A stretch of DNA of 64,000 bases from an uncultured candidatus Brocadiaceae bacterium (lineage in GTDB: Bacteria; Planctomycetota; UBA11346), in the NCBI GenBank assembly GCA_964652775.1, contig CAZZAM010000004.1, positions 112,947-176,946 of the forward strand, written 5' to 3'. A program made the translations under genes and the position numbers. How positions within the stretch are numbered: position 1 is the stretch's first letter; each line of letters starts with the position of its first letter. The notes beneath the pieces were generated by a model. The model did not search any database, had not been told where the DNA came from, and saw only the letters and a list, made by a program, of their open reading frames with translations. Of the stretch, positions 18,149 to 46,821 are shown piece after piece.

Positions 18149-19567
18149 ATGGCTGTCGTCGGCTCAGTTGCCGTCGCGTCTTCGGTGGTGGTCCGCTGGT
18201 TGTTGCCAGTGGTCATTGCCGCAGCGGCATCGTGGGCTGGCTGGTGGTTTTTTGCGCACCAAACCGTGACGCTGGATCCTCGACTGCCGGGAAGCGATCG
18301 TCCAGCCGGCATGGCGGTGGTCGCACGAGTGAATCTGATGGGCAGCTTTACGCAGGGTACTGGCATACCGTTGGTCGAGTCTGAACCGCATACGTGGCCA
18401 GGCTTCCGTGGCAGTGCGGGCGACAACGTGGCGCGGAGCAACGCACTCGGCACGACGTTCCCACCCACTGGTCCACGCAAGGTCTGGTCATTGCCACTTG
18501 GTTTTGGTTATGCTGGTCCGGCGGTGGCCGAGGGTCGAGTCTATATTCTCGACTACGACCAGAAACGACAGGCCGACGCATTGCGCTGTTTGTCACTTGC
18601 CGATGGAGTCGAAATCTGGCGGCGTAGTTACGCCGTGAAGGTGAAATTCAATCACGGGATGTCGCGCACGGTGCCGGCGATCGGTGGTGGGTGCGTGGTT
18701 ACTATTGGACCGAAGTGTCATGTTCTCTGCGTCGATGCGCGGAGTGGTGATTTTCGTTGGGGCATTGATCTCGTGCGGGATGTCGGAACCAAAGAGCCAC
18801 CGTGGTACGCTGGCCAGTGTCCGCTCATTGATGGCAATCGGGTGATTCTTGCTCCGGCCGGGCCTGATGTACTGCTGATGGCGGTGGACCTCGGCACGGG
18901 AAAGCCGCTGTGGACTACGGCGAACACGCAGGGTTGGTCGATGACGCACTCGTCGGTGGTCAAAGCGACGTTATGCGGCCGCGAGGAGTTCATCTATTGT
19001 GGAAGCGGCGGTGTGGTTGGTGTCGATGCCCGTGATGGCCAGGTGTTGTGGCAGACCAACGCGTGGAAGATTAATATCGCCACCGTTCCGACACCAATTC
19101 CCTGCGGTAATGACCGTGTTTTTGTGTGCGGTGGTTACAATGCTGGTTCGGCCATGCTGAACATGCGCGAACAGGGCGGAAAGCTGGAGGCAGCGGTGCA
19201 GTGGCGTCTTCCGGCCAAAGAATTCGGCAGCGATCAGCAAACGCCGGTGCTGTTCGGCGACCGTATCTACGGTGTCATTCCCGATGGCCAACTCGTCTGC
19301 CTTGGTCTTGACGGCACCCGACTCTGGAGCAGTGGCATGAGCAACCGTTTTGGTCTGGGGCCATATCTGATCGCCTCCCAAGCCGTGTGGCTCTTGGATG
19401 ACAACGGCACGCTGAGTGTGGCAGCAACCACCACGGATCATTTCGAACGCCTGGCCACAGCCAAGGTCCTCACTGGTCACGATGCATGGGGACCGATGGC
19501 TGTCGTGGGCAACCGCCTACTGGCGCGTGATCTTGACACCCTGGTTTGTTTGGAGGTGAACCCATGA
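18149..19567 (+). CDS. PQQ-like (BamB-type) beta-propeller repeat protein with N-terminal membrane anchor
   Basis: N-terminal TM (WLLPVVIAAAASWAGWWFFA), then repeated blade motifs (G.VYILD..., LWQTNAW, G.DGTRLWSS) of the PQQ-enzyme-repeat superfamily. First gene of the long coupled operon. Confidence 0.75.
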   Translation: MAVVGSVAVASSVVVRWLLPVVIAAAASWAGWWFFAHQTVTLDPRLPGSDRPAGMAVVARVNLMGSFTQGTGIPLVESEPHTWPGFRGSAGDNVARSNALGTTFPPTGPRKVWSLPLGFGYAGPAVAEGRVYILDYDQKRQADALRCLSLADGVEIWRRSYAVKVKFNHGMSRTVPAIGGGCVVTIGPKCHVLCVDARSGDFRWGIDLVRDVGTKEPPWYAGQCPLIDGNRVILAPAGPDVLLMAVDLGTGKPLWTTANTQGWSMTHSSVVKATLCGREEFIYCGSGGVVGVDARDGQVLWQTNAWKINIATVPTPIPCGNDRVFVCGGYNAGSAMLNMREQGGKLEAAVQWRLPAKEFGSDQQTPVLFGDRIYGVIPDGQLVCLGLDGTRLWSSGMSNRFGLGPYLIASQAVWLLDDNGTLSVAATTTDHFERLATAKVLTGHDAWGPMAVVGNRLLARDLDTLVCLEVNP

Positions 19568-20541
19568 GCGAAACTCCAGCGCCACCCAACAACGTCCCGC
19601 GACGAAAATTGCTGCAGATCGGCATTGCTGGCCTTGGCATCGGCATTGCCAGTGCAGCTGCGTGGGCCGCCGGACGGCGTGAGCCGGATGGCGAAGTGTT
19701 GTACAACGACACCGCCTGGCGGCGCACCGATCCAGCGCTCATCCGCTATCGTGAAGTCGAGCGCATTCCCACCGGTTTGCAGCGTCCACGCGCTCTGGCG
19801 ATTGCGCACGACGGCACACTGTACATCGCCGGAGACCGTTGCGTCGTATCGATTGCCCCCGAGGGCAAACGCCGCTCCGAAGTGGCCTGTGCGGACGCTC
19901 CGCGTTCATTGGCGATCACCACGGATGGCACCGTTCTGGTTGGATTGCGTGATCGCGTCCAGCCGATCAGTAGGGATACTGCGGGTCCGACCTGGGAGGC
20001 CTTGGCTGTCGATGCGCAGATCACCGGTCTTGCAGCACATCCATCCGGTGATGTGTATGCCGCTGATGCCGGTGGGCGGGCATTGTGGCGTTTCCGTGAT
20101 GGCAAGGCGCTCAACCGGATTGGCGGTGAAGGTGATCACGAGTTTATTATCCCCAGCCCGTACATGGATGTGCAGATTGGCCCCGATGGCTTGGTCTGGG
20201 TGGCCAACACCGGTCGCCATCGCTTGGAGGCCTACGATCAGCAGGATCATCGCGTGCGCATGTGGGGAGCCGAAGGCTTCGCGATCGAACGTTTCTGTGG
20301 CTGCTGTAATCCCGCTGATTTTTCCGTGTTACCAGATGGTCGTTTCATCACCAGCGAGAAGGGACTGCCACGGGTGAAGCGTTACGCCGCAGATGGTCGC
20401 TTTGAGTGCGTGGTCGCAGCGGTTGAGACGTTTGCGCCGCAAACCGTCGGGCTGGATATCGCGGTGGCTGCTGACGGTCGCGTGCTGATCCTCGATCCGA
20501 TTGAAAAGGCCGTACGGATCTATGTGGAGAAGAACGCATGA
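19564..20541 (+). CDS. TAT-exported NHL-repeat beta-propeller protein
   Basis: Twin-arginine signal (VPRRKLLQIGIAGLGIGIASAAAWA); repeated DG.LYIAG / DGTVLVG / SGDVYAAD / DGLVWVAN / DGRFITS / DGRVLILD blades typical of NHL/SMP-30-like 6-bladed propellers; unusual CGCC motif (ERFCGCCNPADF). Its ATG overlaps the previous stop (ATGA). Confidence 0.65.
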   Translation: MSETPAPPNNVPRRKLLQIGIAGLGIGIASAAAWAAGRREPDGEVLYNDTAWRRTDPALIRYREVERIPTGLQRPRALAIAHDGTLYIAGDRCVVSIAPEGKRRSEVACADAPRSLAITTDGTVLVGLRDRVQPISRDTAGPTWEALAVDAQITGLAAHPSGDVYAADAGGRALWRFRDGKALNRIGGEGDHEFIIPSPYMDVQIGPDGLVWVANTGRHRLEAYDQQDHRVRMWGAEGFAIERFCGCCNPADFSVLPDGRFITSEKGLPRVKRYAADGRFECVVAAVETFAPQTVGLDIAVAADGRVLILDPIEKAVRIYVEKNA

Positions 20542-20735
20542 AGGATCGCCGCAGTTTCTTGCGTTGGTTTGCGCTCGGCGCTCTGGCCACCGGCCTGGCG
20601 ACGTTAATCACCAGACGTGGCACAACCCCATCGAGTGAGACCTGTGTAAATCAGGGGCTCTGTCGTGGTTGTGGTGCTTACGATGGCTGTCATCTGCCAC
20701 AGGCCTTGTCTATGAAGCAGGAGCTGCGGCGATGA
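20538..20735 (+). CDS. Small (65 aa) twin-arginine-signal Cys-rich protein
   Basis: MKDRRSFLRWFALGALATGLATLI matches the TAT consensus (RRxFL + hydrophobic region), followed by CVNQGLCRGCGAYDGCH (C-x5-C-x2-C-x5-C-H). Its start overlaps the NHL-protein stop (ATGA) and its stop overlaps the ferredoxin start, consistent with translational coupling. Confidence 0.45.
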   Translation: MKDRRSFLRWFALGALATGLATLITRRGTTPSSETCVNQGLCRGCGAYDGCHLPQALSMKQELRR

Positions 20736-21274
20736 ACTTCACCCGCCGCGACATGCTGCGAGGCATTGGCATCCTGGCAGTGGCGTCGGGAGTTGGCGCT
20801 GCGGCGCATGGCGTACCAGGACCACGGACCGTGTGGCAGATCGATCCGCACAAGTGCACCCAGTGCGGACGCTGTGCTCATACGTGCGTGCTGACACCAT
20901 CAGCGGTGAAATGCGTTCACGCGTATGCGGTATGTGGTTACTGCGACCTGTGCACCGGATTCTTCGAGGCCGAAGCCAATGGACTCAACACTGGCGCCGA
21001 GAATCAACTCTGCCCAACCAACGCGATCCAACGCCGTTTTGTCGAAGATCCGTATTTCGCTTATCACATTGACGAAAGCGCCTGCATCGGTTGCGCGCGC
21101 TGCGTGAAGGGCTGTTCATCGTACGGAAACGGCTCGATGTTTTTGCAGATCCGCCATGATCGCTGCGTCAACTGCAACCAATGCTCGATCGCCAGTGACT
21201 GTCCAGCGCAGGCCATTCACCGCGTCCCAGCCGATCAGCCCTACATCCTCAAGACGAAACCGGGGAAGGCGTGA
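20732..21274 (+). CDS. TAT-exported poly-ferredoxin (NapG/MauM/NosG-like, 4x[4Fe-4S])
   Basis: TAT signal MNFTRRDMLRGIGILAVASGVGAAAHG, then four Cys clusters (CTQCGRCAHTC; CGYCDLC...CP; CIGCARCVKGC; CVNCNQCSIASDCP). Confidence 0.8.
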   Translation: MNFTRRDMLRGIGILAVASGVGAAAHGVPGPRTVWQIDPHKCTQCGRCAHTCVLTPSAVKCVHAYAVCGYCDLCTGFFEAEANGLNTGAENQLCPTNAIQRRFVEDPYFAYHIDESACIGCARCVKGCSSYGNGSMFLQIRHDRCVNCNQCSIASDCPAQAIHRVPADQPYILKTKPGKA

Positions 21275-22554
21275 GCCGAATTGCGACGCTCAGCAAGTGG
21301 CGTTGCTCCGCCGTGCGCTGGGTCGCATTGCTGATGCTGGTGGCGTTTGCTTGTGCCGAGGAACGTTTCCCGCCGCCTGACTTCAGTCCCGGATATACGA
21401 TTCCATCGACCACCGTTCCTGGGCCACGCGCCGAGTGGCTGGCGGTTCTCGATGTGGTACTGCTTGCCCTGGCACTTGGCCTCGCGGGTTGGGCAACCTT
21501 GGTCAAACGCTCGCGCACTGCCGCGGTCTGGATCGCCGTTGGCTCCTTGCTGTGGTTTGGTTTTATGCGCCAAGGCTGCGTCTGTTCGATCGGTTCGATC
21601 CAAGATGTGACCCGAGCCGCGGCTCAAGGCGGGGGACTGAGTTGGGTTGCGGCGGCATTCTTTTTTCTGCCGCTGGCGACCGCCTTGATTGCTGGCCGCT
21701 TGTTTTGCAGCGGCGTCTGTCCGCTCGGCGCGATCCAGGATTTGGTCCTCGTGCAACCGTTGCGGCTGCCGAGTTGGCTGAGCGGATTTCTCAGCCTGTT
21801 TCCCTACGTCTATCTGGCATTGGCCGTCGTGTGGGCCGCAACTGGAGCCGCCTATGTCATCTGTGCGTACGATCCGTTTGTCGGCTTCTTCCGCTTCGGT
21901 GGACCGGCGTGGCTGTTGATTGCCGGTGGTGGTCTCTTGTTATTGGGCACGGTAGTTGGTCGGCCATACTGCCGTTTTTTGTGTCCGTATAGCGTGCTGT
22001 TGCGCTGGTTATCCCCGTTATCGCGCTGGCGCATCCGCATTCATCCGAGTGCCTGTACGAACTGCCGTCTGTGTGAAAATTCCTGCCCATTTGATGCGAT
22101 AGCCATGCCTGTGCAGACTGCTGCGCCGCGTCCATCGCGTGTGCTGTTGGCGGTACTAGTGCTCGCCGCCCCGCTGTTGGTTGCGCTTGGTGGATGGCTG
22201 GGTTGGCGCTCGGGTGACACGCTTGCTGGTCGCCATGCGACGGTTGCGTTGGCGGAGCGTATCCGTGCAGAGGACGCCGGCACCGCTATGAGCGCAAACG
22301 ATGCGGCCGAATCCTTCCGCCGAACCGGTAAACCGACGGAAGCACTGTTTGCCGCCGCTGCGGACGTTCGCCAACAGACCAATATGTACGCAGCCGCCGC
22401 CGGTGCGTTCCTGGGACTCGTCGTCGCCGTGGGATTAATTCGCCGCAGCCGACGTCAGCACCAGACCACCTACGAAGCCGAGCCAGGAACTTGTTTGTCG
22501 TGTGCTCGTTGCCTTCCCGATTGTCCAGGCGGACTTCCAGCGGTGACCACATGA
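21271..22554 (+). CDS. Membrane-bound Fe-S protein, NapH/MauN/NosH/CcoG-like
   Basis: Multiple TM helices with the paired C-x3-CP motifs typical of NapH (CSGVCPLG, CRFLCPYS), plus a ferredoxin motif CTNCRLCENSCP. GTG start overlaps the previous stop. Confidence 0.8.
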   Translation: MSRIATLSKWRCSAVRWVALLMLVAFACAEERFPPPDFSPGYTIPSTTVPGPRAEWLAVLDVVLLALALGLAGWATLVKRSRTAAVWIAVGSLLWFGFMRQGCVCSIGSIQDVTRAAAQGGGLSWVAAAFFFLPLATALIAGRLFCSGVCPLGAIQDLVLVQPLRLPSWLSGFLSLFPYVYLALAVVWAATGAAYVICAYDPFVGFFRFGGPAWLLIAGGGLLLLGTVVGRPYCRFLCPYSVLLRWLSPLSRWRIRIHPSACTNCRLCENSCPFDAIAMPVQTAAPRPSRVLLAVLVLAAPLLVALGGWLGWRSGDTLAGRHATVALAERIRAEDAGTAMSANDAAESFRRTGKPTEALFAAAADVRQQTNMYAAAAGAFLGLVVAVGLIRRSRRQHQTTYEAEPGTCLSCARCLPDCPGGLPAVTT

Positions 22555-24212
22555 GGCGCATTCCCTGGCTAGTTATCGCGGTTATTGCTGGGCTTTTCTC
22601 GGTTATGATCACAGCGGCGATGATCGCCAATCTGAGTCACCTGCGCAGTGCAGATCCGCTCCGGAACGGTGATCTAGCGGCTTTGAAAGCGGAGCTCGCC
22701 CAGCATCCCAAAGACGAAGCGCTGAAGACCAAGATCCGTGAACACGATGCCGCGGTTCGCAGTCGTTGGTTTAGTAGCGTTGCGGTCGGCCAACGCGGAG
22801 CTTGGTTGTTATTGCTTGGTGTCGCACTGACCGTGCTGGCAGTAAAACAGGGTCTCCGTGCGCAGGAGGCTCCATTTGACCCGCGACCAGTCCCGCCGCC
22901 GAATCCCACCCGCGTTGTGGCGATGTCACGCTGGGGCTTGGCCGCCGGTGGGATCGTGCTCGCCATAGGACTGTTGCTACTCGGTGGCCAACCAACACCG
23001 GAGTCACAGTCAAGCGGCGAGGTCACAGTACGCTCGCAGCCGTCGCCCGCAGAGTTGGCGCGGAATTGGCCAAGCTTTCGTGGCTCGGCGTCCGGGCTAG
23101 CCGCTGGTGCGGCGCCAATTGCATGGGACGCAGTCGCTGGCACCGGAGTTCTTTGGAAAATTGAACCACCACTGCCGGGACTTTCATCTCCAGTAGTCTG
23201 GGGCGATACCGTGTATGTGAGTGGATCAGATGGTAAAAACCAGGAGATATCAGCGTATGCCAGCGCCACTGGCGACCGGCGTTGGTCGTGTCGAATTCCG
23301 CTGCCAGCGGGCGCTGTCGTCGAAGCCTACGAGGCAACTGGGCATGCGGCACCAACGCCAGTAACTGACGGACAGGTGGTGGTTGGCGTGTTTGCTTCTG
23401 GGGTGCTTGCTGCGGTATCCTGTGATGGCCGTCTCCTGTGGAGTCAGTCGCTCGGCATACCAGATAATTCGTACAGTCTCGCTGCGTCGCCGGTGATTTG
23501 GCAGGACCGCGTGATTATGCAACTGGATCAGGGCGCGGTCGAAGACGGTCGCTCGGCTCTATTGGCATTCGATCTCAGCAACGGACGGAAATTATGGCGC
23601 ACGGCGCGACCGGTTGCCGCTTCATGGGCTTCTCCGTTGGTGACAACATTGGCTGGGCGCGCGCAAGTAATCACCTGTTCTGATCCGTGGGTAATTTCCT
23701 ATGACCCTGCGCAAGGACGAGAATGGTGGCGAGCCAAAGTTCTTTCCGGCGAGGTGTCGTCGTCGCCCACGGTTGCCGGTGGATGTGTCATCGCCGTAAA
23801 ACCCAATGCTGAATTGGTGGCGATTCGTCCTGATGGCAGCGGCGATGTGACGGCAAGTCACATCGCATGGCGTGGCGAAGACTCAGTTCCTGATATGTCG
23901 AGTCCAACTGGTGACGCAACAATGTTGGCATTATTCAATGGTGACATGTTGTGCTGTGACGCCGTGACAGGGACAAAACTCTGGCAGCATCCAGGCACTA
24001 ACGCGGTGATTGCATCGCCGATTATTGCCGACGGAAGACTCTACGTCATCGACGAGACTGGTTCGACGACTATCTTTGCTTGGGACCGGAGCTTGAAAGT
24101 CCTCGGTACGGCGCACTTCGGCGAGAAGATTTCATCAACACCGGCGGTGGTGGATGGGCGCATCTATGTACGCGGCGACAAGCATCTCTTTTGCATCGGT
24201 TCAGCGCCGTGA
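22551..24212 (+). CDS. PQQ-like beta-propeller repeat protein with N-terminal membrane anchor
   Basis: TM helix (IPWLVIAVIAGLFSVMITAAMIA), a long linker, then PQQ-like blades (WPSFRGS, DTVYVSGSDG, GRKLWRT, GTKLWQH, DGRLYVIDETG, DGRIYVRGD). ATGA overlap with the previous gene. Confidence 0.75.
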   Translation: MRRIPWLVIAVIAGLFSVMITAAMIANLSHLRSADPLRNGDLAALKAELAQHPKDEALKTKIREHDAAVRSRWFSSVAVGQRGAWLLLLGVALTVLAVKQGLRAQEAPFDPRPVPPPNPTRVVAMSRWGLAAGGIVLAIGLLLLGGQPTPESQSSGEVTVRSQPSPAELARNWPSFRGSASGLAAGAAPIAWDAVAGTGVLWKIEPPLPGLSSPVVWGDTVYVSGSDGKNQEISAYASATGDRRWSCRIPLPAGAVVEAYEATGHAAPTPVTDGQVVVGVFASGVLAAVSCDGRLLWSQSLGIPDNSYSLAASPVIWQDRVIMQLDQGAVEDGRSALLAFDLSNGRKLWRTARPVAASWASPLVTTLAGRAQVITCSDPWVISYDPAQGREWWRAKVLSGEVSSSPTVAGGCVIAVKPNAELVAIRPDGSGDVTASHIAWRGEDSVPDMSSPTGDATMLALFNGDMLCCDAVTGTKLWQHPGTNAVIASPIIADGRLYVIDETGSTTIFAWDRSLKVLGTAHFGEKISSTPAVVDGRIYVRGDKHLFCIGSAP

Positions 24213-26527
24213 CGGCAACCATTGATCTCACAGCAGTCGATTCGGCCATCGCGCGTCACGGTGGAAAACCGGATGCGTTGATTCCATTGTTACAGGATCT
24301 CCAGCGCCATTACCGTTGGCTGCCACCGCCAGCATTGGCGCGACTGTCCGAGTTGACCGGCATTCATCCGGTATCCGTTGCCGGAGTCTCGACATTTTAC
24401 GATCAATTCCGCCATCGGCCGGCTGGACGTCATCTCATTCATATTTGCCACGGCACTGCCTGCCACGTCAAGGGTTCGCAACAAATTGAAGCCTCGTTGC
24501 GCCGTCACCTGAAACTCAGCGATGATGCCGACACCGACGCCAAGGGCGTGTTTACCATCCAGCCGGTTGCGTGTTTGGGATGTTGCACGTTGGCGCCGGT
24601 CGTGCAGTGCGCTGGCGCGACCTATGGCCATCTGACTCCGGAAAAAGTCAGCGGCATACTTGACGATGTCTTGGCGCGGGAACGTGCCGGTGTGATCGTG
24701 CCACAGGCATCTGCGATCGGTGGTGGCGGCGGACCTGAATTGCGGGTTGGTTGTGGCTCGTGCTGTCTCGCCAATGGCAGTGGCGAGGTGAAGCAGGAAA
24801 TGGAACGCGAGTTGACCCGCCTCGGTCGCCAGGCGATCGTGCGTCCGGTTGGCTGTGTCGGTATGTGTCACCGCACGCCGCTGGTCGAAGTCGCTGATGC
24901 ACATGGTGTGGTCAGTAGCTATGGCAATGTCGCGGCAGCAGATGTTGCGGCGATCGTACGTCGCCACCTGCCCCCGCGTAGTTTTGCCGAGCGAATCAGG
25001 CGTATTGCCGTTGCCATGATCGATAAACTCGCTGGCGAAGAAGGTTCGGCTACTGTTGATCGTTTGGCGTTAGATCAGCGCGATCCGCATTTGTGCGGAT
25101 TTCTTGGCCCGCAGCGACGTATCGCAACGGAGCACAGCGGTGAGATCGAGCCGCTTAACCTCGAAGCATGGTTGGCGAAGGGGGCGTTCTCGGCGTTACG
25201 TCAGGCTCTGGCGACCGATCCAACGGCGATCATTACGTGCATCAGTGCGTCTGGATTGCGTGGTCGCGGCGGCGCTGGATTTCCCACTGGCCGCAAATGG
25301 GCGGCAGCGCGGGCGGCGGCCGATCCGCTGCGTTATGTGGTGTGCAACGGTGACGAAGGCGACCCCGGCGCATTTATGGACCGGATGATTCTTGAGTCGT
25401 TCCCATTCCGTGTCCTGGAAGGGTTGGCTATCGCCGCCCATGCGGTCGGTGCGCGGGAGGGAATTCTCTATATCCGTGCTGAGTATCCGTTGGCGGTGAC
25501 GCGGATCCGCGAGGCGATTGAGCGCTGTGCCTCATTACTTGCGCCGCTCCGCCTGCGGGTCGTCGAAGGCGCTGGTGCCTTCGTGTGTGGCGAAGAAACA
25601 GCGCTGATTGCATCGGTTGAAGGTCAACGTGGCACACCGCGTCTGCGTCCGCCGTTTCCAGTTGAATCGGGGCTGTGGGGCCATCCGACCTGCGTCAACA
25701 ATGTTGAAACTCTGGCCCTGGTGCCGTGGATTGTGACCAACGGCAGTGCGGCATTTGCCGCGGTCGGAACGAAAGGTAGCACCGGAACCAAGGTGTTCGC
25801 GTTGGCGGGCAAGATTAAACACGGCGGCCTGATCGAAGTACCGATGGGCACTAGTCTGCGCACGATCGTCGAGGACATCGGTGGTGGCGTTGCCAATGGT
25901 GGGCAATTCAAGGCGGTGCAAATAGGTGGGCCGAGTGGAGGTTGTATACCGGCAGAACTGTGCGATTTGCCGGTGGATTATGACGCCCTTGCTGGAGCTG
26001 GTGCGATCATGGGCTCCGGCGGATTGGTCGTGCTTGATCAGCGTGACTGCATGGTCGACATCAGTCGCTACTTTCTCCACTTCACCCAAGAGCAATCGTG
26101 CGGCAAATGCACGTTCTGTCGCTTGGGTACCAAGCGCATGCTCGATATCCTTGATCGCCTATGCACCGGTCACGGCAAAGCTGCCGACCTAGTCAAGCTT
26201 GAAGAGTTGGCCGGACAGGTACAGGCATCCAGTCTGTGTGGACTTGGTCAAACCGCGCCGAATCCGGTGCTGACGACGCTACGTCATTTCCGCAGTGAAT
26301 ATGAGGCACATATCGCCGGGCGCTGTCCGGCGGGACGTTGTACGGCGCTGATTCGCTATCAGGTCACAGATACTTGTACCGGCTGCAGTAAATGCGCCCA
26401 AGTGTGTCCGGTTGCGGCAATTCCGTTCACGCCCTATCAGCGTCACCGCATCGACGTCGCGGCCTGCACCCGTTGTGATCAATGTCGGACGATCTGCCCC
26501 GAACGCGCCATCGAGGTGGTCTCATGA
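24209..26527 (+). CDS. Fused NuoE-like [2Fe-2S] / NuoF-like NAD(P)H-FMN / ferredoxin flavoprotein (HoxF/HydB/FdsB-like)
   Basis: NuoE-type thioredoxin-like 2Fe-2S motifs (CHGTACH...CLGCC), a second 2Fe-2S-like region (GCGSCCLANG...VGCVGMCH), NuoF 51-kDa motifs (GLRGRGGAGFPTGRKW; the 4Fe-4S region CGKCTFCR) and a C-terminal 2x[4Fe-4S] ferredoxin (CTGCSKCAQVCP, CTRCDQCRTICP). GTG start overlaps the previous stop (GTGA). Confidence 0.85.
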   Translation: MTATIDLTAVDSAIARHGGKPDALIPLLQDLQRHYRWLPPPALARLSELTGIHPVSVAGVSTFYDQFRHRPAGRHLIHICHGTACHVKGSQQIEASLRRHLKLSDDADTDAKGVFTIQPVACLGCCTLAPVVQCAGATYGHLTPEKVSGILDDVLARERAGVIVPQASAIGGGGGPELRVGCGSCCLANGSGEVKQEMERELTRLGRQAIVRPVGCVGMCHRTPLVEVADAHGVVSSYGNVAAADVAAIVRRHLPPRSFAERIRRIAVAMIDKLAGEEGSATVDRLALDQRDPHLCGFLGPQRRIATEHSGEIEPLNLEAWLAKGAFSALRQALATDPTAIITCISASGLRGRGGAGFPTGRKWAAARAAADPLRYVVCNGDEGDPGAFMDRMILESFPFRVLEGLAIAAHAVGAREGILYIRAEYPLAVTRIREAIERCASLLAPLRLRVVEGAGAFVCGEETALIASVEGQRGTPRLRPPFPVESGLWGHPTCVNNVETLALVPWIVTNGSAAFAAVGTKGSTGTKVFALAGKIKHGGLIEVPMGTSLRTIVEDIGGGVANGGQFKAVQIGGPSGGCIPAELCDLPVDYDALAGAGAIMGSGGLVVLDQRDCMVDISRYFLHFTQEQSCGKCTFCRLGTKRMLDILDRLCTGHGKAADLVKLEELAGQVQASSLCGLGQTAPNPVLTTLRHFRSEYEAHIAGRCPAGRCTALIRYQVTDTCTGCSKCAQVCPVAAIPFTPYQRHRIDVAACTRCDQCRTICPERAIEVVS

Positions 26528-26552
26528 CTGCTTCACATGCTGTGGCCGCTCC

Positions 26553-28118
26553 ATGAAACTGCGCATCGACAACCGGGACGTTGAAGTCGCTGAAGGCGCG
26601 ACCGTGTTGGAGGCCGCTACCAAGGCTGGCATCGCCATTCCCACGTTGTGTCATCTTCCGGGTAAACCCTGTCAAACGTCGTGTTTGGTGTGCGTGGTGC
26701 GCATTGACGGCGGCAAACGGCTGGTGCCGTCATGCGCGACCAAGGCGCGTGAGGGGATGCATGTGGATAGCTCGGGTCCGCAGATCCGCGCCGCTCGCCG
26801 CACGGCGCTCGAGTTACTGTTCGGCTATCATTACGGCGATTGCCTGGCCCCATGTGAAACGGTGTGCCCGACGCAATTCGATGTGCCCGAGTTGATCCGC
26901 TTGGCCAAGTCGTGGCAGCTTGAAGAAGCCATGTTGGTGATGTTGGAGCGTGCCGCTTTACCTGGTGTTTTGGCCCGGGTATGCCCAGCACCCTGCGAGC
27001 GTAGTTGTCGCCGTCAGCAAGGTGATGGTTCGCTGGCAGTTCGTTCGGTCGAACGCTTAGTGGCAGACGCGGACCTGGCGGCTGGGTGCGTGTTGCCGAT
27101 ATGCCGGAAAGACAGCGGTAAGCGCGTCGCCATCGTTGGTGCTGGCCCAGCGGGATTGGCCACCGCATTTCATCTGCGTCGTTTCGGTCATGCCTGTGCG
27201 CTCTTCGATGCGGCACCGGTTGCTGGCGGCGCGTTACGCAATGCGCTGCCCGAGGAAGTGCTGCCAGCCGCCGTACTGGATGCCGAAGTATCGCGGATTC
27301 TCCGCCTTGGTGCCACGTTCCATGGAGGTCGTCGGTTGGGCAGCGATCTTGTGCTGAGCGATCTGCGCCGCGATTATGATGCGGTAGTCCTAGCGCTGGG
27401 CGTGATTGACGCCGAGCAGGCAAAGGCGCTTGGACTCGCCTACGCCAAGAACGGTTTGGCCGCAGCCAGCGGCAGTGGCGCAACGGCACAGCCAGGCATT
27501 TTCGTAACCGGATCGGCGATGTTGCCAGCTCAACAAGCTGTGCGTGCGATTGCGTCCGGACGCGGTGTCGCCGTGGCGGTGGATCGTTTCCTGGCTGGTG
27601 CCGAGCCGCAGGCTGAAGGCCGCGGTTGGTCTGTGCGGGTGGGCAAGATTCCTGCTCCTGATCTCCAACACATGATTCGTTTGGCTTCAGCGAGTCCTCG
27701 CCACGAACCTTCGCCCGGTGGTTGTTTGGAGGAAGATGCGGCCAAGGACGAAGCCTCGCGTTGTCTTGCGTGCTCCTGTTCCAGCCGACATGACTGCACG
27801 CTGCGTCGCTACGGTGATGAGTACCAGGCCGAACCGGCTCGATTCCGCTCGCCTTTGCCGCCACTCCAGCGTGATGACAGCCATCCCTTGGTAAGTTATG
27901 AACCGGGTAAGTGCATCGCCTGTGGAATTTGCGTGAGCATTGCTGCTGATTATGGTGAACAACTCGGACTCGGCTTTGCCGGTCGCGGTTACACCATCCA
28001 GGTTGCCGTGCCGCTGGGCGGCTCGATGCGCGAGGCGCTGCAGGTGTCAGCCGTCGCCTGTGCGGCAGCTTGTCCAACCGGTGCCATTGCGGTAAAAGCC
28101 CAGGCATGCCCACCCTGA
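26553..28118 (+). CDS. Fe-S flavoprotein: N-terminal NuoG/HoxU-like 2Fe-2S ferredoxin fused to GltD-like FAD/NAD(P)H oxidoreductase
   Basis: MKLRIDNRDVEVAEGATVLEAA...CHLPG...C..C.VCVV (NuoG-N 2Fe-2S), CPAPCERSC (GltD-type 4Fe-4S), VAIVGAGPAGLATAF (Rossmann GxGxxG), and further C-terminal Cys clusters (CLACSCSS..C, CIACGICV). Confidence 0.75.
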   Translation: MKLRIDNRDVEVAEGATVLEAATKAGIAIPTLCHLPGKPCQTSCLVCVVRIDGGKRLVPSCATKAREGMHVDSSGPQIRAARRTALELLFGYHYGDCLAPCETVCPTQFDVPELIRLAKSWQLEEAMLVMLERAALPGVLARVCPAPCERSCRRQQGDGSLAVRSVERLVADADLAAGCVLPICRKDSGKRVAIVGAGPAGLATAFHLRRFGHACALFDAAPVAGGALRNALPEEVLPAAVLDAEVSRILRLGATFHGGRRLGSDLVLSDLRRDYDAVVLALGVIDAEQAKALGLAYAKNGLAAASGSGATAQPGIFVTGSAMLPAQQAVRAIASGRGVAVAVDRFLAGAEPQAEGRGWSVRVGKIPAPDLQHMIRLASASPRHEPSPGGCLEEDAAKDEASRCLACSCSSRHDCTLRRYGDEYQAEPARFRSPLPPLQRDDSHPLVSYEPGKCIACGICVSIAADYGEQLGLGFAGRGYTIQVAVPLGGSMREALQVSAVACAAACPTGAIAVKAQACPP

Positions 28119-28747
28119 CAGCGAGCGGATTAGTTAAACGGCACCTTGGTGCAGGCCGTGATATCCTTTCGCATCTCGACCTGACGGTACATTCCGGCGA
28201 GACGGTGGCGATTCTTGGCCCATCGGGCTCAGGCAAGAGTACGCTGCTGCATTGTCTGGGCACGCTGGATCGTCCCGACGCTGGCTGCATTCGCCTTGGC
28301 GATACCGATCTGCTCGCTTTGACCGGCGAAGATCTGCGGCGGTTTCGTGCGCAACGACTGGGCCTTATTTTTCAAGAGCATCATTTGCTGCCGCATCTGA
28401 GTGCGCTTGAAAATGTGCTGGTGCCGCCAGGTGCTCAGCTGGGATCTGCCCAGCGTTTGTTGAACCGTCTTGGCCTGACCCATCGCGCCAATGCGTTTCC
28501 AGCGCACTTGTCTGGCGGTGAACGTCAACGCGTGGCCGTGGCCCGGGCGTTGATCAATGCGCCGCACATGCTGCTGTGCGACGAACCGACCGGCAGCCTG
28601 GATCGGGCCACTGGAGTTGAAGTCGCTGGGATCATCTTCGAGTTGGCTGCCGAGGTAGGTGCGGTTGTAGTAATTGCGACACACGACGACGTGCTGGGGT
28701 CACGCTGCGCACGTCGCCTGCATCTGAACGACGGCGCGTTGGCATGA
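28106..28747 (+). CDS. ABC transporter ATP-binding protein (MacB/LolD/FtsE-like)
   Basis: Walker A GPSGSGKST, Q-loop, LSGGERQRVAVARAL signature, Walker B LLCDEPTGSLD. The ATG lies 13 nt inside the previous gene. Confidence 0.85.
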   Translation: MPTLTASGLVKRHLGAGRDILSHLDLTVHSGETVAILGPSGSGKSTLLHCLGTLDRPDAGCIRLGDTDLLALTGEDLRRFRAQRLGLIFQEHHLLPHLSALENVLVPPGAQLGSAQRLLNRLGLTHRANAFPAHLSGGERQRVAVARALINAPHMLLCDEPTGSLDRATGVEVAGIIFELAAEVGAVVVIATHDDVLGSRCARRLHLNDGALA

Positions 28748-31700
28748 AGATCATCACCCTTGCCTGGCGAGCGGCGCGGTACCACCGTGGCCTCGCCGGA
28801 GCTGCCGCAGTTGGCGTGGCGATCAGCACCGCGGTAATTACTGGGGCATTGTTGTTGGGGGACAGCCTGCGTGCGACCCTGAGACAGCAGTTGGATGCGC
28901 GTCTGGGCAATGTGGGTCAAGCGATCATTGCGCCGCGATCAGTAAGTCCGTCATTGGCAGACACACCCGGCGCCGCTGGCATCCGTTATCTTGATGGCAC
29001 TGCGGCCAGTGAAGATGGAGCAACGATTCCGGCCCGCGTATTGGGTGTTGATGAACGCAGTCATCTGTTGTTTTCTGATTTACCACCGTTGCCTCCACGC
29101 ACTGCGGCGGTCAGTCCTGCTCTGGCTCGTGATCTGCATCTCCACGTTGGTGATGGGTTGTTGGTCGCTGTGCGGATTGGTCAGCAGTTACCGGCTGGGT
29201 CCGCATTTGCTGAAACGCGTCACGAACGCCTGCAGCGGCGCATGCGCGTCACCATTGCTGCGATCTTGCCCGATCCCGGCGTTGGCGGATTCAGTCTTGA
29301 TCCCGGCCTCGATGCGCCGCGCAGCGTGTGGCTTGATCGTACCTGGCTTGCCGGCGTTCTCGGTGAAGACCGTATCGATGTCATCCTTGGCGATGCCGAT
29401 ACGCGACTTGATCTAGCGGCGCAGGTTGCGTTGACCGATCTCGGAATCCGTCTCGTCAACGATGTGAAACTCGGACAGGTGACCGTACAGAGCGATGGGC
29501 TGGTCATGGCGCCGGGATTGGCTTCGGCCGTACGCGGTGCGGCAAAGGCGTGTGGTAGTACTGCCGAAGCGAACGCGATTCATCTGGCCGATCGTATCGT
29601 GCGCGATGGTGGTGGTGAAGCGTCGTACGCGTTGATCGCTGCGCGTGAACGTACGGGGATTACCAAGCCAGCATCTGACAGCATCGATCTGTCAGCCTTG
29701 CTGTCCGACAGCATCACTCTGTCAGCCTGGCTGGCGGAAGATCTTGGCGCTGCAGTTGGCGATCAGTTACGCGTGCAATTTCCACTCGCTGGCGACCGCA
29801 TGGAAGAGGTGCGTCTGCGGGTGGGATTGATAATTCCCGACGACCTAGCCGCCAACGATCCCGCCATCGTTCCAGTCGTTCCTGGTCTCACCGACGCCGA
29901 GCGCATCGAGAATTGGGATCTGCCGTATGCCATTGCATCGACGCGCATCACGTCTCGGGACGATGCGTGGTGGGCCGCACATCACACCGCCCCCAAAGCG
30001 TTCGTGCATCCGTCGGTGTTACAACGATTGTGGGCCATGGGACCACTCGGCAGTGCTGGACCGTGGATTTCTGGTCTGCGCGTGCGTCCGCCAGCCGGCG
30101 AAGATCTAACGGCATTTTCTGATCGTTTATCATCTGCAGTGCGATGCGCTGTGGCGCCAGCAGATGCCGGCCTGTCGGCGCAGCAGGTGCGGCGACATGC
30201 TGAGTCTCGTGCACAGGGTAACGCTGATCTCGGAGGGTTGTTTCTCGGTCTCGGTATCGTGGTGATCTGCGCTGGACTCGCGCTAACTGCGGCTCTGGTT
30301 CGCTTACAGATTTGTCAACGCGCAACTGAAGTCGGCGTTCTCTTGGCGTGTGGTTGGAGTACCGCCGCGGTGCGTTGTTTGTTGCTCATGGAGGCAGTGA
30401 CCATCAGTGCGTTTGGTGCGGTGCTCGGCACGATGCTGGGTGTGGGATGGGCTCGTCTGCTCATTCTGTTGCTGTCCTCTGATTGGGCAGGCACAGCGGT
30501 TGCCGTGCCGTTGACCCTGTACCTCAGTCCGAGTTCCATGCTGATCGGTGGATTCATCGGTCTGGTGACGGGAACAATGGCTGCAGCGTGGGGTCTGCGT
30601 GCGCTGTTGCGGCAAGAACCTGGGACCTTGCTGATTGGATCCCGTACGCCGTCCGCCAACACGGAGCGGCGTTGGCGTGTGCCACTCGTTTTCGCTGAAG
30701 CACTGCGCTTTCCTGGGCGCAGTTTCCTGGCCATCGGCTTGATGGCTGCTTCAGCAGCAATCCTGATTCTCGTAGCGGCACAGCGACGCGGCGTGAGTGA
30801 GGTCGGCCGCGATGGTCCGACCGGCGGCTACGCGATGCGCGTCACCACGGCCTTACCGATTCCTGAAAATCTCGCGAGTCCGACTGGGCGCGCACGCCTC
30901 GGTTGCACGCCTGAAGAAGAACGTGTCTTAGCCGACATGCAGGTTGCTGCATTCCTGGTCGGTCCCGGTGAAGATATCTCGTGTCGTAATCCTGCGCGTC
31001 CATCCCAGCCACGCATGCTGGGATGTTTGTCGGCAATGAGTGGCTTTGGTGTAACGGCCACGGCTTGGGAATCGTTGTCTGTAGGAGGTGATCCAATTCC
31101 GGTTCTTGGTGATGCCGATAGTTTACGTTGGACGCTGGGCATTGGTTCCAGTGGCACGGCTCGGGTGACGATCCGAGGCAGCGAACGCGAAGTGCGGATC
31201 GTTGGCGCGTTTCCAGGCAGCGTATTTGCGGGCGAGTTGGTTATGGGTGAAGCTGCATTTCGCCGGTGTTTTCCGTCCGTTACTGCGCCAACCTATTTTC
31301 TGCTCCAGCTTCCTGCCGAGCAGACTGTCGCGGCGGCCACGATCCTACGCCGTCGGCTGGCTGGTTTTGGGGTCGAGGTGCGAGCGACGGTCGACGTCGT
31401 GACCGCCCAACTCGCGGTCCGCGATGCGTACCTGTCGCTGTTTCTGGCGCTGGGCAGCCTCGGCTTATTGATTGGTGCCGGTGGTCTTGCGGTCGTGTTT
31501 GCACGTAGTGCTTTGGAACGGCGTGCAGAACTAGCCTTGTTGGCTGCCCTTGGTCATCGTCCTAGTCTGATCCTGTTTGCCGGTCATACGTTGTTGTTGG
31601 GCCTTGGCCTGGTCGTCGGTCTCATCCTGGCAGCAGGTGCAGTTGCGCTTGGTCCTCCGACCCACGGGGCTTGGATGGCGGCTTGTCCAGCTGTTGTAGC

Positions 31701-31788
31701 CGTGGTGCTGACCGCCGTGCTGACCGCAGCCGTGGCAGCACGGCGTTGCGCAGATCAGGATTTGGTGCAGGAATTGCGACGTGAGTAA
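28744..31788 (+). CDS. FtsX-family ABC permease, large MacB-like with extended periplasmic domains
   Basis: 1014 aa; N-terminal TM then a long periplasmic region, two blocks of clustered TM helices (around 30.2-30.7 kb and 31.4-31.75 kb), consistent with duplicated FtsX domains. ATGA overlap with the ATPase. Confidence 0.8.
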   Translation: MKIITLAWRAARYHRGLAGAAAVGVAISTAVITGALLLGDSLRATLRQQLDARLGNVGQAIIAPRSVSPSLADTPGAAGIRYLDGTAASEDGATIPARVLGVDERSHLLFSDLPPLPPRTAAVSPALARDLHLHVGDGLLVAVRIGQQLPAGSAFAETRHERLQRRMRVTIAAILPDPGVGGFSLDPGLDAPRSVWLDRTWLAGVLGEDRIDVILGDADTRLDLAAQVALTDLGIRLVNDVKLGQVTVQSDGLVMAPGLASAVRGAAKACGSTAEANAIHLADRIVRDGGGEASYALIAARERTGITKPASDSIDLSALLSDSITLSAWLAEDLGAAVGDQLRVQFPLAGDRMEEVRLRVGLIIPDDLAANDPAIVPVVPGLTDAERIENWDLPYAIASTRITSRDDAWWAAHHTAPKAFVHPSVLQRLWAMGPLGSAGPWISGLRVRPPAGEDLTAFSDRLSSAVRCAVAPADAGLSAQQVRRHAESRAQGNADLGGLFLGLGIVVICAGLALTAALVRLQICQRATEVGVLLACGWSTAAVRCLLLMEAVTISAFGAVLGTMLGVGWARLLILLLSSDWAGTAVAVPLTLYLSPSSMLIGGFIGLVTGTMAAAWGLRALLRQEPGTLLIGSRTPSANTERRWRVPLVFAEALRFPGRSFLAIGLMAASAAILILVAAQRRGVSEVGRDGPTGGYAMRVTTALPIPENLASPTGRARLGCTPEEERVLADMQVAAFLVGPGEDISCRNPARPSQPRMLGCLSAMSGFGVTATAWESLSVGGDPIPVLGDADSLRWTLGIGSSGTARVTIRGSEREVRIVGAFPGSVFAGELVMGEAAFRRCFPSVTAPTYFLLQLPAEQTVAAATILRRRLAGFGVEVRATVDVVTAQLAVRDAYLSLFLALGSLGLLIGAGGLAVVFARSALERRAELALLAALGHRPSLILFAGHTLLLGLGLVVGLILAAGAVALGPPTHGAWMAACPAVVAVVLTAVLTAAVAARRCADQDLVQELRRE

Positions 31789-32995
31789 GCTTCGCCTCAG
31801 CGCGCTTATCGTTGCTATCCTCCTGGCAGCATGGATAGGCGTGGTGATGACGCGCTCTGAGCCTGTTCTTCCGACGCCGCGCTCCACGCTGCCGACCCAT
31901 CAGCCGCCGACGGCGTCGTTGCCTGCTACGGTTGCGCCATGTGAACGGGTTGATTGGCCGTCCTATCGCGGTTCTCCAGCCCTAGCGGGCACAGCGAGAT
32001 CTCTTCCTGGAATTCCAGTGCGAAAATGGTCCTGGGAGGCTGGAGCCTCCGTCATTGCCACGGCGGCTATTGTCGGTGATGGCGTCTTTGTTGCGACCCA
32101 GCGCGGCGTTTTGGCGCGATTACGCTTGCGGGACGGCCACGAAATGTGGCGACTGCCCGGCGGAGCTCCGTATGTCGGCAGTCCGCTTGTCGTAGACGGT
32201 ACAGTCTATGTCGGGGATGAAGACGGAGTTGTTCGTGCCGTTGATGCTGCGAGTGGCGCTCTCCGCTGGTCACGTGACCTTGAAGCAAAAATCATGGGCT
32301 CGCCGACGGCTGCTCCGACATCGATACTGATTGGCACATACGGGAATGTCCTGTTGCGACTCGCCGTCAATGACGGACACACGTTGTGGTCGGTCAACAG
32401 CGATAGCTACGTGCACGCGACTGCGGCGGTGGTCGGCGACTGGGTTGTATTTGCTGGATGTGATGCCGATGTGCATTGCCTGGACATGTCCGATGGCAGT
32501 CAACGTGGTCACTATCCAGGAAAGGATCCTTACGCAGCTGCGCCAGCATGCGTGGGCAACACAGCCTGGGTTGCATCGCACAGCGGAACCGTTGCGGCCC
32601 TGACGTTGCCTGCGGTCACGGTGCGTTGGCACAAGCCAGGCGGGATAGGCGAGATTACCGAGGCCGCAGCCGCAGATGGCATTCATGCCGTATTTGCGGG
32701 AGGTGCTGGCGCCTTGGTGTGCTTAGCCGCTCGTGATGGCGCGTTGCGTTGGACGGTTCGTCTGGGAACCGGAGTTCGAGCGCCGCCGGTGATCTGTGGC
32801 GATCAGGTCATCCAGGGTGCCGAGGATGGCGTGCTACGTGGCTTGGACCTGAGCGATGGCAAGGAACGCTGGCGCTTTGCTGCTGGCGGAGCAATCCGCG
32901 CTGGGGCAGCGATCGCTGGCCCGTGGTTGATTATTCCGACTACCGATGGAGCGGTGCACGGTTTGTGCGCTGAATCAACATCGTCTGGGCCCTAG
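31781..32995 (+). CDS. Secreted PQQ-like beta-propeller repeat protein
   Basis: Signal/anchor (LSALIVAILLAAWIGVV), a Pro/Thr linker, then WPSYRGS and repeated DG.VYVGDEDG / LRWS / GHTLWS blades. GTG start overlaps the permease stop by 8 nt. Confidence 0.7.
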   Translation: MSKLRLSALIVAILLAAWIGVVMTRSEPVLPTPRSTLPTHQPPTASLPATVAPCERVDWPSYRGSPALAGTARSLPGIPVRKWSWEAGASVIATAAIVGDGVFVATQRGVLARLRLRDGHEMWRLPGGAPYVGSPLVVDGTVYVGDEDGVVRAVDAASGALRWSRDLEAKIMGSPTAAPTSILIGTYGNVLLRLAVNDGHTLWSVNSDSYVHATAAVVGDWVVFAGCDADVHCLDMSDGSQRGHYPGKDPYAAAPACVGNTAWVASHSGTVAALTLPAVTVRWHKPGGIGEITEAAAADGIHAVFAGGAGALVCLAARDGALRWTVRLGTGVRAPPVICGDQVIQGAEDGVLRGLDLSDGKERWRFAAGGAIRAGAAIAGPWLIIPTTDGAVHGLCAESTSSGP

Positions 32996-34704: not shown

Positions 34705-34783
34705 GAGATGCTCCTGGCGGTGCGAGATTGCGGCAGTTGATCGGGTCAAGACCGAAATGGAAGCCACGGTCGACAGATGAAAG

Positions 34784-35300: not shown

Positions 35301-35513
35301 TAATCCATTCGTCGCAATCCTGGTGTTGCGGTCACATGGTGTGGCGCATTAACCATGCGTGACAATTGTCCTGTATAATTCCGTCATACGGCCATTTGTT
35401 CTTTGTTGTGGCTTCCTCAATTTGCGGTTGCTTCATTATCATCACTACGTACAGGTAGCATGTTCTCTCGTTTCAAACTTCGCCCATTTAGCACACCTAC
35501 GGAGCGCAGCATA

Positions 35514-37811: not shown

Positions 37812-37825
37812 ATCGCGGAACCACT

Positions 37826-42346: not shown

Positions 42347-42353
42347 GGCCACC

Positions 42354-43769: not shown

Positions 43770-43771
43770 CA

Positions 43772-46809: not shown

Positions 46810-46821
46810 CAGGATCATGCC

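Follow-up and report, generated by a model that had tools for sequence, protein, structure and literature searches.

The electron-bifurcating enzymes of the Bfu family include HydABC, NiFe-HydABCSL, and Fdh-Bfu, as well as the predicted Nuo-Bfu and Mbh-Bfu; a survey of the family (Schut et al. 2022, PMC9304861) contains a BfuB phylogeny of 57 clades and has 17 BfuB clades without an assignment. The non-bifurcating proteins NuoF, HoxF, and FdsB lack its B2-B5 sites (PMC9304861), and the C-terminal domain that carries clusters B3 and B4 is the ferredoxin-interacting domain of Bfu enzymes (PMC11829005, PMC10482914). In one branch, the NADH-dependent ferredoxin:NADP+ transhydrogenases NfnABC and StnABC, the Fdh/NuoG-like C-terminal domain of BfuA (clusters A4/A5) mediates tetramerization. 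In a proposal by Meheust et al. (2021, PMC8238504), NapH-like membrane proteins serve as modular conduits for electrons across the membrane, and NapH is generally described as a quinol-reactive subunit (PMC8238504, PMC9012536). Little is understood of the way in which reducing power from the cytoplasm gets to the periplasm when neither quinones nor cytochromes take part, and the function of the cytoplasmic Fe-S clusters in NapH- and NosR-type proteins is a long-standing puzzle. Here we describe two adjacent plus-strand genes, gene A and gene B, found at positions 24209-28118 of a 64 kb stretch of contig CAZZAM010000004.1 from an uncultured candidatus Brocadiaceae bacterium; this whole stretch is referred to below as the window.

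Genes A and B belong to an 11-gene operon on the plus strand (18149-32995), in which start and stop codons overlap by 4 nt at seven of the ten junctions (Table 1). A prediction made earlier from the DNA alone (hereafter, the original prediction) had placed the pair at these positions, coupled translationally to genes for exported proteins; both points held, the latter also in the RR-type signals of the NHL-repeat protein, the NapG-like protein, and a small open reading frame (ORF). We think that the pair, on balance, probably serves as the cytoplasmic part of a conserved redox system that spans the membrane, a module linked to NAD(H) and probably to ferredoxin. Judged from its sequence, the origin of this module is an enzyme of the NfnABC/StnABC type, in which the NuoE-like domain has become fused to the NuoF-like subunit and the BfuA-like subunit, gene B, has been shortened; the NADP(H) site has been lost, and the third partner is most plausibly the NapH-like protein encoded by the same operon.

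Searches of the PDB placed the NuoF part of gene A nearest to NfnB of C. saccharolyticus (9bov_B, 7e-198), followed by StnB of S. ovata (8oh5_B) and NfnB of T. sibiricus (9n5u_B). Behind these Nfn/Stn subunits came HydB of bifurcating hydrogenases and, at a much greater distance, FdsB (~1e-107), NuoF (~1e-92), and HoxF (5xf9, 1.7e-90), with scores against the HoxEFU, FdsGBA, and NuoEFG types ~300 bits lower than those against Nfn/Stn. The N-terminal 184 amino acids of gene A, its NuoE part, matched 9bov_C best (2.3e-39), and a phmmer search with gene B returned 9bov_A (1.3e-92), then 9n5u_A and 8oh5_C. Because the NuoE, NuoF, and gene B modules are all closest to the same solved complexes, we conclude that the pair derives from the NfnABC/StnABC branch of the Bfu family. 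The original prediction had seen in the cofactor layout a diaphorase or bifurcating module of the HoxFU, NfnAB, SudAB, or FdsBG kind; the bifurcating part of this assignment stands, whereas those four identities were rejected in favor of NfnABC/StnABC, to which the best matches belong.

Gene A begins with a GTG that overlaps the stop codon of the preceding gene by 4 nt, and its Pfam profile consists of 2Fe-2S_thioredx/NuoE (7e-48), Complex1_51K (3.9e-44), NADH_4Fe-4S (3.7e-32), and a C-terminal 2x[4Fe-4S] dicluster domain. Ligand conservation was judged on an alignment of 20 homologs (~60% identity), which shows little or no variation at the residues of the Bfu core (C1, B1, B3, B4, and the B2 and B5 sites). 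Specifically, the glycine loop and the cysteines listed in Table 1 for C1, the N3/B1 equivalent, B3/B4, and the B5 position are all invariant, and at the B2 position H701, C706, and C711 are invariant and C296 is nearly so; B2 and B5 may hold either Zn or an Fe-S cluster. As far as its residues tell, gene A possesses the BfuBC core by which the family is recognized, namely a flavin mononucleotide (FMN)/NAD(H) site, B1, the B2-B5 sites, and C1.

This ranking also bears on whether the pair acts as diaphorase for a hydrogenase or formate dehydrogenase (FDH) encoded elsewhere in the genome, the service that NuoE/NuoF/NuoG-N modules perform in HoxEFU and FdsGBA and the case that, by its own terms, would refute the original prediction. 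We regard this as very improbable, gene A being much nearer to Nfn/Stn and HydB than to FdsB or HoxF, and gene B having no counterpart of the domain in which a catalytic subunit is carried or docked. When every large ORF in the window was scanned with Pfam, no catalytic subunit of a hydrogenase, FDH, or heterodisulfide reductase was found, in agreement with the original prediction. One related locus from Armatimonadota does have FeFe-hydrogenase-like genes ~6 kb away on the opposite strand (L085:18537-21599, minus strand), but these carry NuoE/NuoG-like domains of their own, and such genes were seen neither in the window nor at the other loci.

Gene B, which starts with ATG, matches Fer2_4 (1.7e-14), Fer4_20 (the GltD/DPD N-terminal di-cluster domain; 1.2e-14), a single Rossmann domain of the flavin adenine dinucleotide (FAD) type, and Fer4_Nqo3, with scores, as for gene A, well outside what chance would give. 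Its AlphaFold (AF2) model, with a predicted local distance difference test score (pLDDT) of 87.5, aligned in Foldseek with the N-terminal ~680 residues of 9bov_A, 9n5u_A, and 8oh5_C at template-modeling (TM) scores of 0.83-0.86. Two parts of those relatives are missing from it. First, the Pyr_redox_2 match covers only profile positions 2-31 of 291; the HMMER alignments jump from residue 288 to residue 399 of 9bov_A, omitting 289-398; and the gap against T. sibiricus NfnA (9n5u_A, 291-402) holds the second Rossmann motif (323-348, VVGGGNTAMD). Second, the alignment to 9bov_A stops at about residue 674 of 1178, so that the Fdh-like C-terminal domain (A4/A5) is absent. The NADPH-binding second Rossmann domain was absent from all 30 aligned homologs, and no GltD-type NADPH motif was found among the 120 top matches to gene B; the short form of ~520 amino acids accounts for 30/30 aligned homologs, 120/120 top matches, and 124 of the 150 best representatives at 50% identity. 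Our first regular expression for the NADPH Rossmann motif was over-strict for relatives of intermediate length, a class that is heterogeneous.

With the NADPH-binding subdomain lost, hydride exchange with NADP(H) is no longer possible, and with the Fdh-like domain missing as well, the pair cannot be an Nfn/Stn transhydrogenase. The earlier view of gene B as an NAD(P)H-reactive GltD-like flavoprotein was abandoned, its NADPH domain being deleted, and we read the input to the pair as NADH and probably ferredoxin. The GxGxxG and GG-LR motifs for FAD are invariant across the same 30 homologs. A homolog of 757 amino acids in an unchanged gene order (L054:10008-12281, from the uncultured bacterium MFD03726.bin.2.170) has a full Pyr_redox_2 domain (profile positions 2-291), with VIVGGGNTAMD and GGD motifs present and an apparent shift of reading frame toward its 3' end. 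To judge from its domains, this gene looks like an evolutionary intermediate that has lost only the Fdh-like domain and, as it keeps the NADPH site, the link to the membrane partner would more probably run through the C-terminal cluster end of gene B, on the side once occupied by the Fdh-like domain; contact through the flavin face appears less likely. Short gene B homologs also occur in fusions, among them one joined to a NuoE-like domain (P0501, 697 amino acids), which is consistent with the products of genes A and B forming one complex. Two others carry a second full-length GltD-like module and a ferredoxin (P0372, 1133 amino acids) and a URO-D-like domain (P0365, 951 amino acids).

The same losses could be taken to mean that the pair is a stand-alone cytoplasmic enzyme, either an NADH:ferredoxin oxidoreductase or a degenerate Nfn/Stn, whose neighbors are co-regulated without being electron partners. 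Its nearest relatives are indeed soluble, the L054 cluster retains a full NADPH domain in context, and at another locus (L002) gene B stands without NapG- or NapH-like genes nearby. The short gene B, however, has no recognizable third-substrate site once the NADPH subdomain is gone, and the transfer of electrons from NADH to ferredoxin alone is endergonic.

The conservation of gene order speaks to the same question. The carriers seen were metagenome-assembled genomes (MAGs) or metagenome contigs throughout. At loci found through genes A and B, linkage to NapG/NapH-like genes was present in 11 of the 12 that were informative, and the conserved order was propeller, NHL, small Cys protein, NapG-like, NapH-like, propeller, gene A, and gene B, with the ABC/FtsX pair and propeller 3 optional. 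This order was found in Planctomycetota including Pirellulales, Armatimonadota, Chloroherpetonaceae, Bacteroidetes/Prolixibacteraceae, a MAG labeled 'Bacillota', and an ENA metagenome, among others. Propeller 1 kept its position at L001, L004, L005, L007, L012, L085, L086, and L089; an ABC ATPase follows gene B at L001, L002, and L085, and the ABC/FtsX pair is present in many, but not all, clusters. In the survey of a genome collection seeded on gene B, the back-translated patterns were generic GltD motifs, and at least about ten loci were true members of the family.

An independent metagenome survey, seeded on motifs specific to the NapH-like protein, yielded 80 loci; the denominators below are the loci whose flanks were long enough to be scored. 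A NapG-like gene was present upstream of the NapH-like gene in 59/61 and an NHL gene in 47/52; downstream, propeller 2 was present in 59/63, gene B in 29/39, and gene A in 40/46, the last figure comprising 37 loci with gene A within 6.5 kb and three more in which it lay within 10 kb, past inserted genes. These inserts include a type II/IV restriction-modification pair (L130, 9086-16078), MaoC and RDD genes (L137, 13225-15585), and, at L163 (11311-14802 and 19432-20887), transposase and PIN genes, with gene A still downstream in each case. A gene for a NosD-like beta-helix protein with a type IX secretion system (T9SS) sorting domain is also among the inserts that interrupt the operon in this set. 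Linkage to NapGH-like genes is therefore not sporadic, the outcome that would have counted against the original prediction, and protein identities of only 36-60% across loci indicate that the gene order has been kept over long divergence. Such retention of order and of tight NapG/H-like coupling across several phyla argues for a functional linkage. Because substrate and docking domains are missing and synteny is conserved, both the stand-alone enzyme and the diaphorase are disfavored; we consider the first decidedly unlikely and the second far less credible still.

No other membrane protein encoded in the cluster has motifs for redox cofactors on its cytoplasmic face, so the pair would most obviously dock at the NapH-like protein. 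It was aligned with orthologs (five sequences from different phyla), and its topology was assigned by hydropathy and positive-inside analysis. Two CX3CP motifs (C146/C150-P and C234/C238-P) and two CxxCxxCxxxCP motifs (C262-C272-P and C408-C418-P) are invariant, and all four lie on the predicted cytoplasmic side. Three further invariant cysteines, C103, C105, and C198, fall in loops predicted to face the periplasm (GCxC and ICxYDPF motifs) and may bind a metal there, at a site that could matter for the passage of electrons through the membrane. The label given in the original prediction needs qualification, since the protein is a membrane Fe-S protein that passes only the Fer4_5 domain model and falls far short of the NapH family models (TIGR02163, 40.9 bits against a cut-off of 213; PRK09477, 38.1 against 234). 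Its NapG-like neighbor has an RR-type signal (TRRDMLRGIG) and 16 invariant cysteines in about four [4Fe-4S] motifs. No NapAB/NapC nitrate reductase genes were found in the window or at any related locus examined.

The descriptions of NapH as quinol-reactive (PMC8238504, PMC9012536), together with the prediction of Bfu modules on quinone-reducing membrane arms, as in Nuo-Bfu (PMC9304861), would allow genes A and B to form an NADH(/ferredoxin):quinone oxidoreductase with the NapH-like protein, the NapG-like protein and propellers drawing instead on the quinol pool. We hold this to be quite unlikely, if a little less so than a stand-alone enzyme: the NapH-like protein fails the NapH family models, a quinone site is not identifiable by sequence, and the near-obligate co-occurrence of four or five exported proteins would be superfluous for a quinone reductase.

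Among the exported proteins, the NHL-repeat propeller (RR-type signal PRRKLLQIG) has an invariant vicinal cysteine pair (GCCNP, residues 246-250, C247-C248). D168, D202, D298, E265, K266, R270, and K272 are likewise invariant in the family alignment, which contains no invariant His. In many homologs a lipobox-like LGCS replaces the RR signal, so a cofactor inserted in the cytoplasm is not obligatory. The AF2 model (pLDDT 88) matched only generic NHL domains in Foldseek (TRIM2, Thin, and Brat). The 65-amino acid ORF between the NHL and NapG-like genes overlaps each neighbor by 4 nt and encodes an RR motif (DRRSFLRW) and four invariant cysteines in a C-x5-C-x2-C-x5-C pattern; equivalents of 74-84 amino acids were called at L001, L004, L088, and L089. 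Pfam and NCBIfam contained no family for it, giving a sub-threshold TAT-signal match only, and its L004 ortholog had only chance-level matches to PGF-CTERM/MerP. Its product, exported or held by an anchor, may bind a metal or a cluster, or may instead assist assembly. In propeller 2, adjacent cysteines (C468/C469) were dropped as a feature, only C468 being conserved.

The PQQ_2 proteins have weak matches to models of alcohol dehydrogenases dependent on pyrroloquinoline quinone (PQQ), which invites the reverse of the flow that we favor: periplasmic propellers would oxidize an external donor, and the NapG- and NapH-like proteins and gene B would feed the Bfu core for bifurcation to NAD+ and ferredoxin. 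Bfu enzymes are reversible, with BfuA the electron-input side in Nfn/Stn bifurcation (PMC11829005, PMC10482914), and there are reports of gene clusters in which a NapH-like protein accompanies a periplasmic oxidase, for example ExaA (PMC8238504). The matches, however, lie far below the quinoprotein cut-offs, and BamB or 'empty quinoprotein' models fit better; the window showed no genes for the biosynthesis of PQQ (pqq), and no candidate low-potential donor-oxidizing cofactor site was identified. In addition, the host groups named above, which we take to be mostly organotrophs, are presumably not short of NADH. Reverse flow thus seems to us unlikely, although it is the alternative that we take most seriously.

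In the arrangement that we favor, with gene A/B as the cytoplasmic module, NADH would be oxidized at the FMN of gene A and, optionally, reduced ferredoxin at its C-terminal B3/B4 clusters, as in other Bfu enzymes. Clusters A1, A2, and A3 of gene B would conduct the electrons in turn to the NapH-like protein, entering it at its two [4Fe-4S] clusters on the cytoplasmic side, and from there across the membrane to the exported NapG-like poly-ferredoxin and the periplasmic NHL and PQQ_2 propellers. The NHL protein, with its invariant Cys-Cys pair, would be the best candidate for the terminal redox partner, and the ABC/FtsX pair would supply ATP-driven work in the periplasm. We infer from the combined evidence the docking of gene A/B to the NapH-like protein, transmembrane transfer, the direction of flow, bifurcation or confurcation, FAD retention, and the terminal reaction. 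A bolder version is possible but doubtful: the system would be a new Bfu class, common among Planctomycetota, Armatimonadota, Bacteroidota, and their relatives, with an Fe-S protein of the membrane, the NapH-like one, taking the place of a soluble third substrate, and in which NADH and reduced ferredoxin (confurcation), often with a MacB-type ABC transporter, deliver low-potential electrons to an exported poly-ferredoxin and propellers, the NHL Cys-Cys protein carrying out a periplasmic reduction.

Several observations weigh against the pair being the cytoplasmic module of a membrane-spanning system. At L002, from Armatimonadetes, gene B occurs with ABC, FtsX, and propeller genes, and neither gene A nor NapG/H-like genes are nearby; similarly, six of the 46 NapH-seeded loci have no gene A in the available sequence. 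The contact between gene B and the NapH-like protein is deduced from synteny, and no fusion of the two was found among the 150 best representatives or the long and mid-length relatives scanned. The NADPH site kept in the L054 cluster indicates that its loss is not a prerequisite for the association. The C-terminal 'GD' motif for FAD is G-S in gene B of the window and, in the 88 top matches where the motif was found, its second residue is S, A, N, or G in 72 and D in only 14; because of this degeneracy, FAD retention, although plausible on sequence, is uncertain. Classical NapH is regarded as a quinol dehydrogenase. Finally, the fold search of the NHL model for a known enzyme gave no functional lead.

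Table 1. Positions in the window of the 11 operon genes, in order, and of the domains and sites of genes A and B
Feature	Position	Strand	Remarks
1. PQQ_2/BamB-like beta-propeller protein 1	18149..19567	+	472 aa; N-terminal hydrophobic anchor/signal; Pfam PQQ_2 2.7e-27
2. NHL-repeat six-bladed propeller	19564..20541	+	325 aa; RR-type signal/anchor; Pfam NHL 1.7e-12
3. Small conserved ORF	20538..20735	+	65 aa; RR motif, hydrophobic segment, 4 invariant Cys
4. NapG-like exported poly-ferredoxin	20732..21274	+	180 aa; RR signal; Pfam Fer4 families
5. NapH-like integral membrane Fe-S protein	21271..22554	+	427 aa; Pfam Fer4_5 2e-11
6. Membrane-anchored PQQ_2/BamB-like beta-propeller protein 2	22551..24212	+	553 aa; Pfam PQQ_2 3.3e-28
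7. Gene A, fused NuoE/BfuC-like and NuoF/BfuB-like flavoprotein	24209..26527	+	772 aa
Gene A, NuoE/BfuC-like thioredoxin-fold [2Fe-2S] domain, C1 site (C80, C85, C122, C126)	24239..24667	+	
Gene A, second thioredoxin-like 4-Cys site, B5 position (C185/C186, C216, C220)	24740..24988	+	NCBIfam 2Fe-2S ferredoxin match, residues 186-257
Gene A, FMN/NAD(H)-binding domain (GLRGRGGAGFPTG loop)	25241..25726	+	Complex1_51K; invariants 351-364
Gene A, [4Fe-4S] site equivalent to N3/B1 (C631, C634, C637, C677)	26060..26311	+	NADH_4Fe-4S
Gene A, C-terminal 2x[4Fe-4S] domain (B3/B4)	26363..26515	+	Pfam Fer4_21/Fer4_7; C723-C733, C753-C763
8. Gene B, truncated NfnA/StnC-like (BfuA-like) subunit	26553..28118	+	521 aa
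Gene B, NuoG-type N-terminal [2Fe-2S] domain (A1)	26556..26771	+	Fer2_4; invariant Cys
Gene B, GltD/NfnL-type 2x[4Fe-4S] domain (A6/A7 equivalents)	26847..27080	+	Fer4_20
Gene B, FAD-type beta-alpha-beta (GAGPAGL) and GG-LR motif	27123..27242	+	NAD_binding_8/Pyr_redox_2; G196, G198, P199, G201, G225, G226 invariant
Gene B, junction of missing ~110-residue NADPH-binding Rossmann subdomain of NfnA/StnC	27405..27452	+	HMMER alignments
Gene B, C-terminal NuoG-type cluster motifs (C404, C407, C409, C415; C454, C457, C460, C503/C507)	27762..28088	+	Fer4_Nqo3; invariants
9. LolD/MacB-type ABC ATPase	28106..28747	+	213 aa; Pfam ABC_tran 5.6e-34; NCBIfam LolD 1.3e-58, under its cut-off
10. Large FtsX/MacB-type permease	28744..31788	+	1014 aa; ~8 transmembrane segments; large periplasmic domains; Pfam FtsX 6.2e-14, MacB_PCD
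11. PQQ_2/BamB-like beta-propeller protein 3, final operon gene	31781..32995	+	404 aa; Pfam Beta-prop_ACSF4 9.3e-43, PQQ_2 8.4e-35

The surroundings of the operon contain additional genes of related or separate character. Six PQQ_2/BamB-like propeller genes lie inside 21 kb, three of them beyond the operon (33508-34866 on the minus strand, 35403-37811, and 37808-39379); all six share a 'WPxFRG'-type motif, and none reaches quinoprotein dehydrogenase thresholds. Further along (39585-48108, plus strand) is a run of genes for an SSF transporter, an AMP-binding enzyme, an aldehyde-dehydrogenase-like protein, an Fe-ADH, a radical SAM protein, and a tryptophan-halogenase-like flavoprotein, which resembles a small biosynthetic or catabolic cluster; a link to genes A and B is not evident. 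A 557-amino acid Arg/Pro-rich ORF antisense to gene B (26617-28290, minus strand) contains no recognizable domain; most likely it merely shadows the GC-rich coding sequence of the other strand. Scans for promoters and terminators gave counts no higher than shuffle expectation and were uninformative. At other loci, radical-SAM genes and genes of the squalene-hopene-cyclase/prenyltransferase fold adjoin the cluster (L001:16418-20331 and L089:65-3030), as does a cyclase-fold gene only at L087:8677-9762; these recurrent neighbors may represent a further association.

Taken together, this is a real and conserved system with a Bfu core, a truncated BfuA, and NapH-like and periplasmic partners, and it suggests an undescribed route by which cytoplasmic electrons move into the periplasm. 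The literature searched, which was limited in range, held the general concept of NapH as a conduit (PMC8238504) and no description of NuoEF/GltD-like genes linked to NapH-like genes, so that the arrangement is, as the original prediction had it, apparently uncharacterized. An NADH/ferredoxin-reactive Bfu core that has lost its former soluble substrate site and is encoded directly beside a NapH-type protein offers a concrete, testable candidate for the electron donor of such proteins, and would give a function to one of the many unassigned Bfu lineages. The cluster also flags conserved exported proteins of unexplained chemistry, namely the NHL Cys-Cys protein, the small 4-Cys protein, and the BamB-like propellers.

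We compared the locus with five groups of described systems. NapGH, NosGH/NosR, and the 'NapH-like systems' of PMC8238504 likewise combine a polytopic Fer4_5 protein, bearing two CX3CP and two cytoplasmic [4Fe-4S] motifs, with an exported poly-ferredoxin, and the latter systems share with this cluster the proposed role of conduit to periplasmic redox enzymes. In contrast to them, the NapH-like protein described here has seven or eight hydrophobic segments rather than the four of NapH, there is no NapA/NapC, NosZ, or flavinylated FMN-binding partner, and the NapH-like gene alone is preceded or followed by a cytoplasmic NuoEF-type module. The 31 MsrQ-like clusters with a NuoF-like gene reported in PMC8238504, where the present arrangement is not described, also link a NuoF-type NAD(P)H module to a transmembrane carrier and an extracytosolic reaction; that carrier, however, is of the di-heme MsrQ/FRD type instead of a NapH-like Fe-S protein, and neither Bfu-type accessory clusters nor a GltD-like subunit is described for them.

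With the HoxEFU and FdsGBA diaphorases and the NuoEFG part of complex I, the pair shares NuoE, NuoF, and NuoG-N domain types, FMN, and NADH; those enzymes lack the B2-B5 sites and the GltD-like insertion, and their catalytic subunits are adjacent. Relative to the Bfu family at large (PMC9304861), the pair keeps the BfuBC core with its full ligand set and, like the predicted Nuo-Bfu and Mbh-Bfu, its core would attach to a membrane module; a partner set of NapH-like protein, NapG-like protein, and beta-propellers is not among the third-substrate modules of Schut et al. (2022), and a text search of PMC9304861 found no mention of NapH or PQQ. Closest in sequence and fold, for all three modules, are NfnABC/StnABC (9BOV/9BP5, 9N5U, and 8OH5), with which the pair has in common the FMN/NAD(H) site, C1, B1, B3, B4, the ligands of the B2 and B5 sites, the A1 [2Fe-2S] cluster, the GltD/NfnL-type di-cluster domain, the FAD-type Rossmann fold, and the NuoG-type clusters. 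It differs from them in that (i) the NuoE-like domain is fused to the NuoF-like subunit, (ii) gene B lacks both the ~110-residue NADPH subdomain and the ~500-residue Fdh-like domain (A4/A5), (iii) the FAD 'GD' motif is degenerate, and (iv) the pair is encoded among membrane and periplasmic proteins, whereas NfnABC and StnABC form a three-gene soluble operon.

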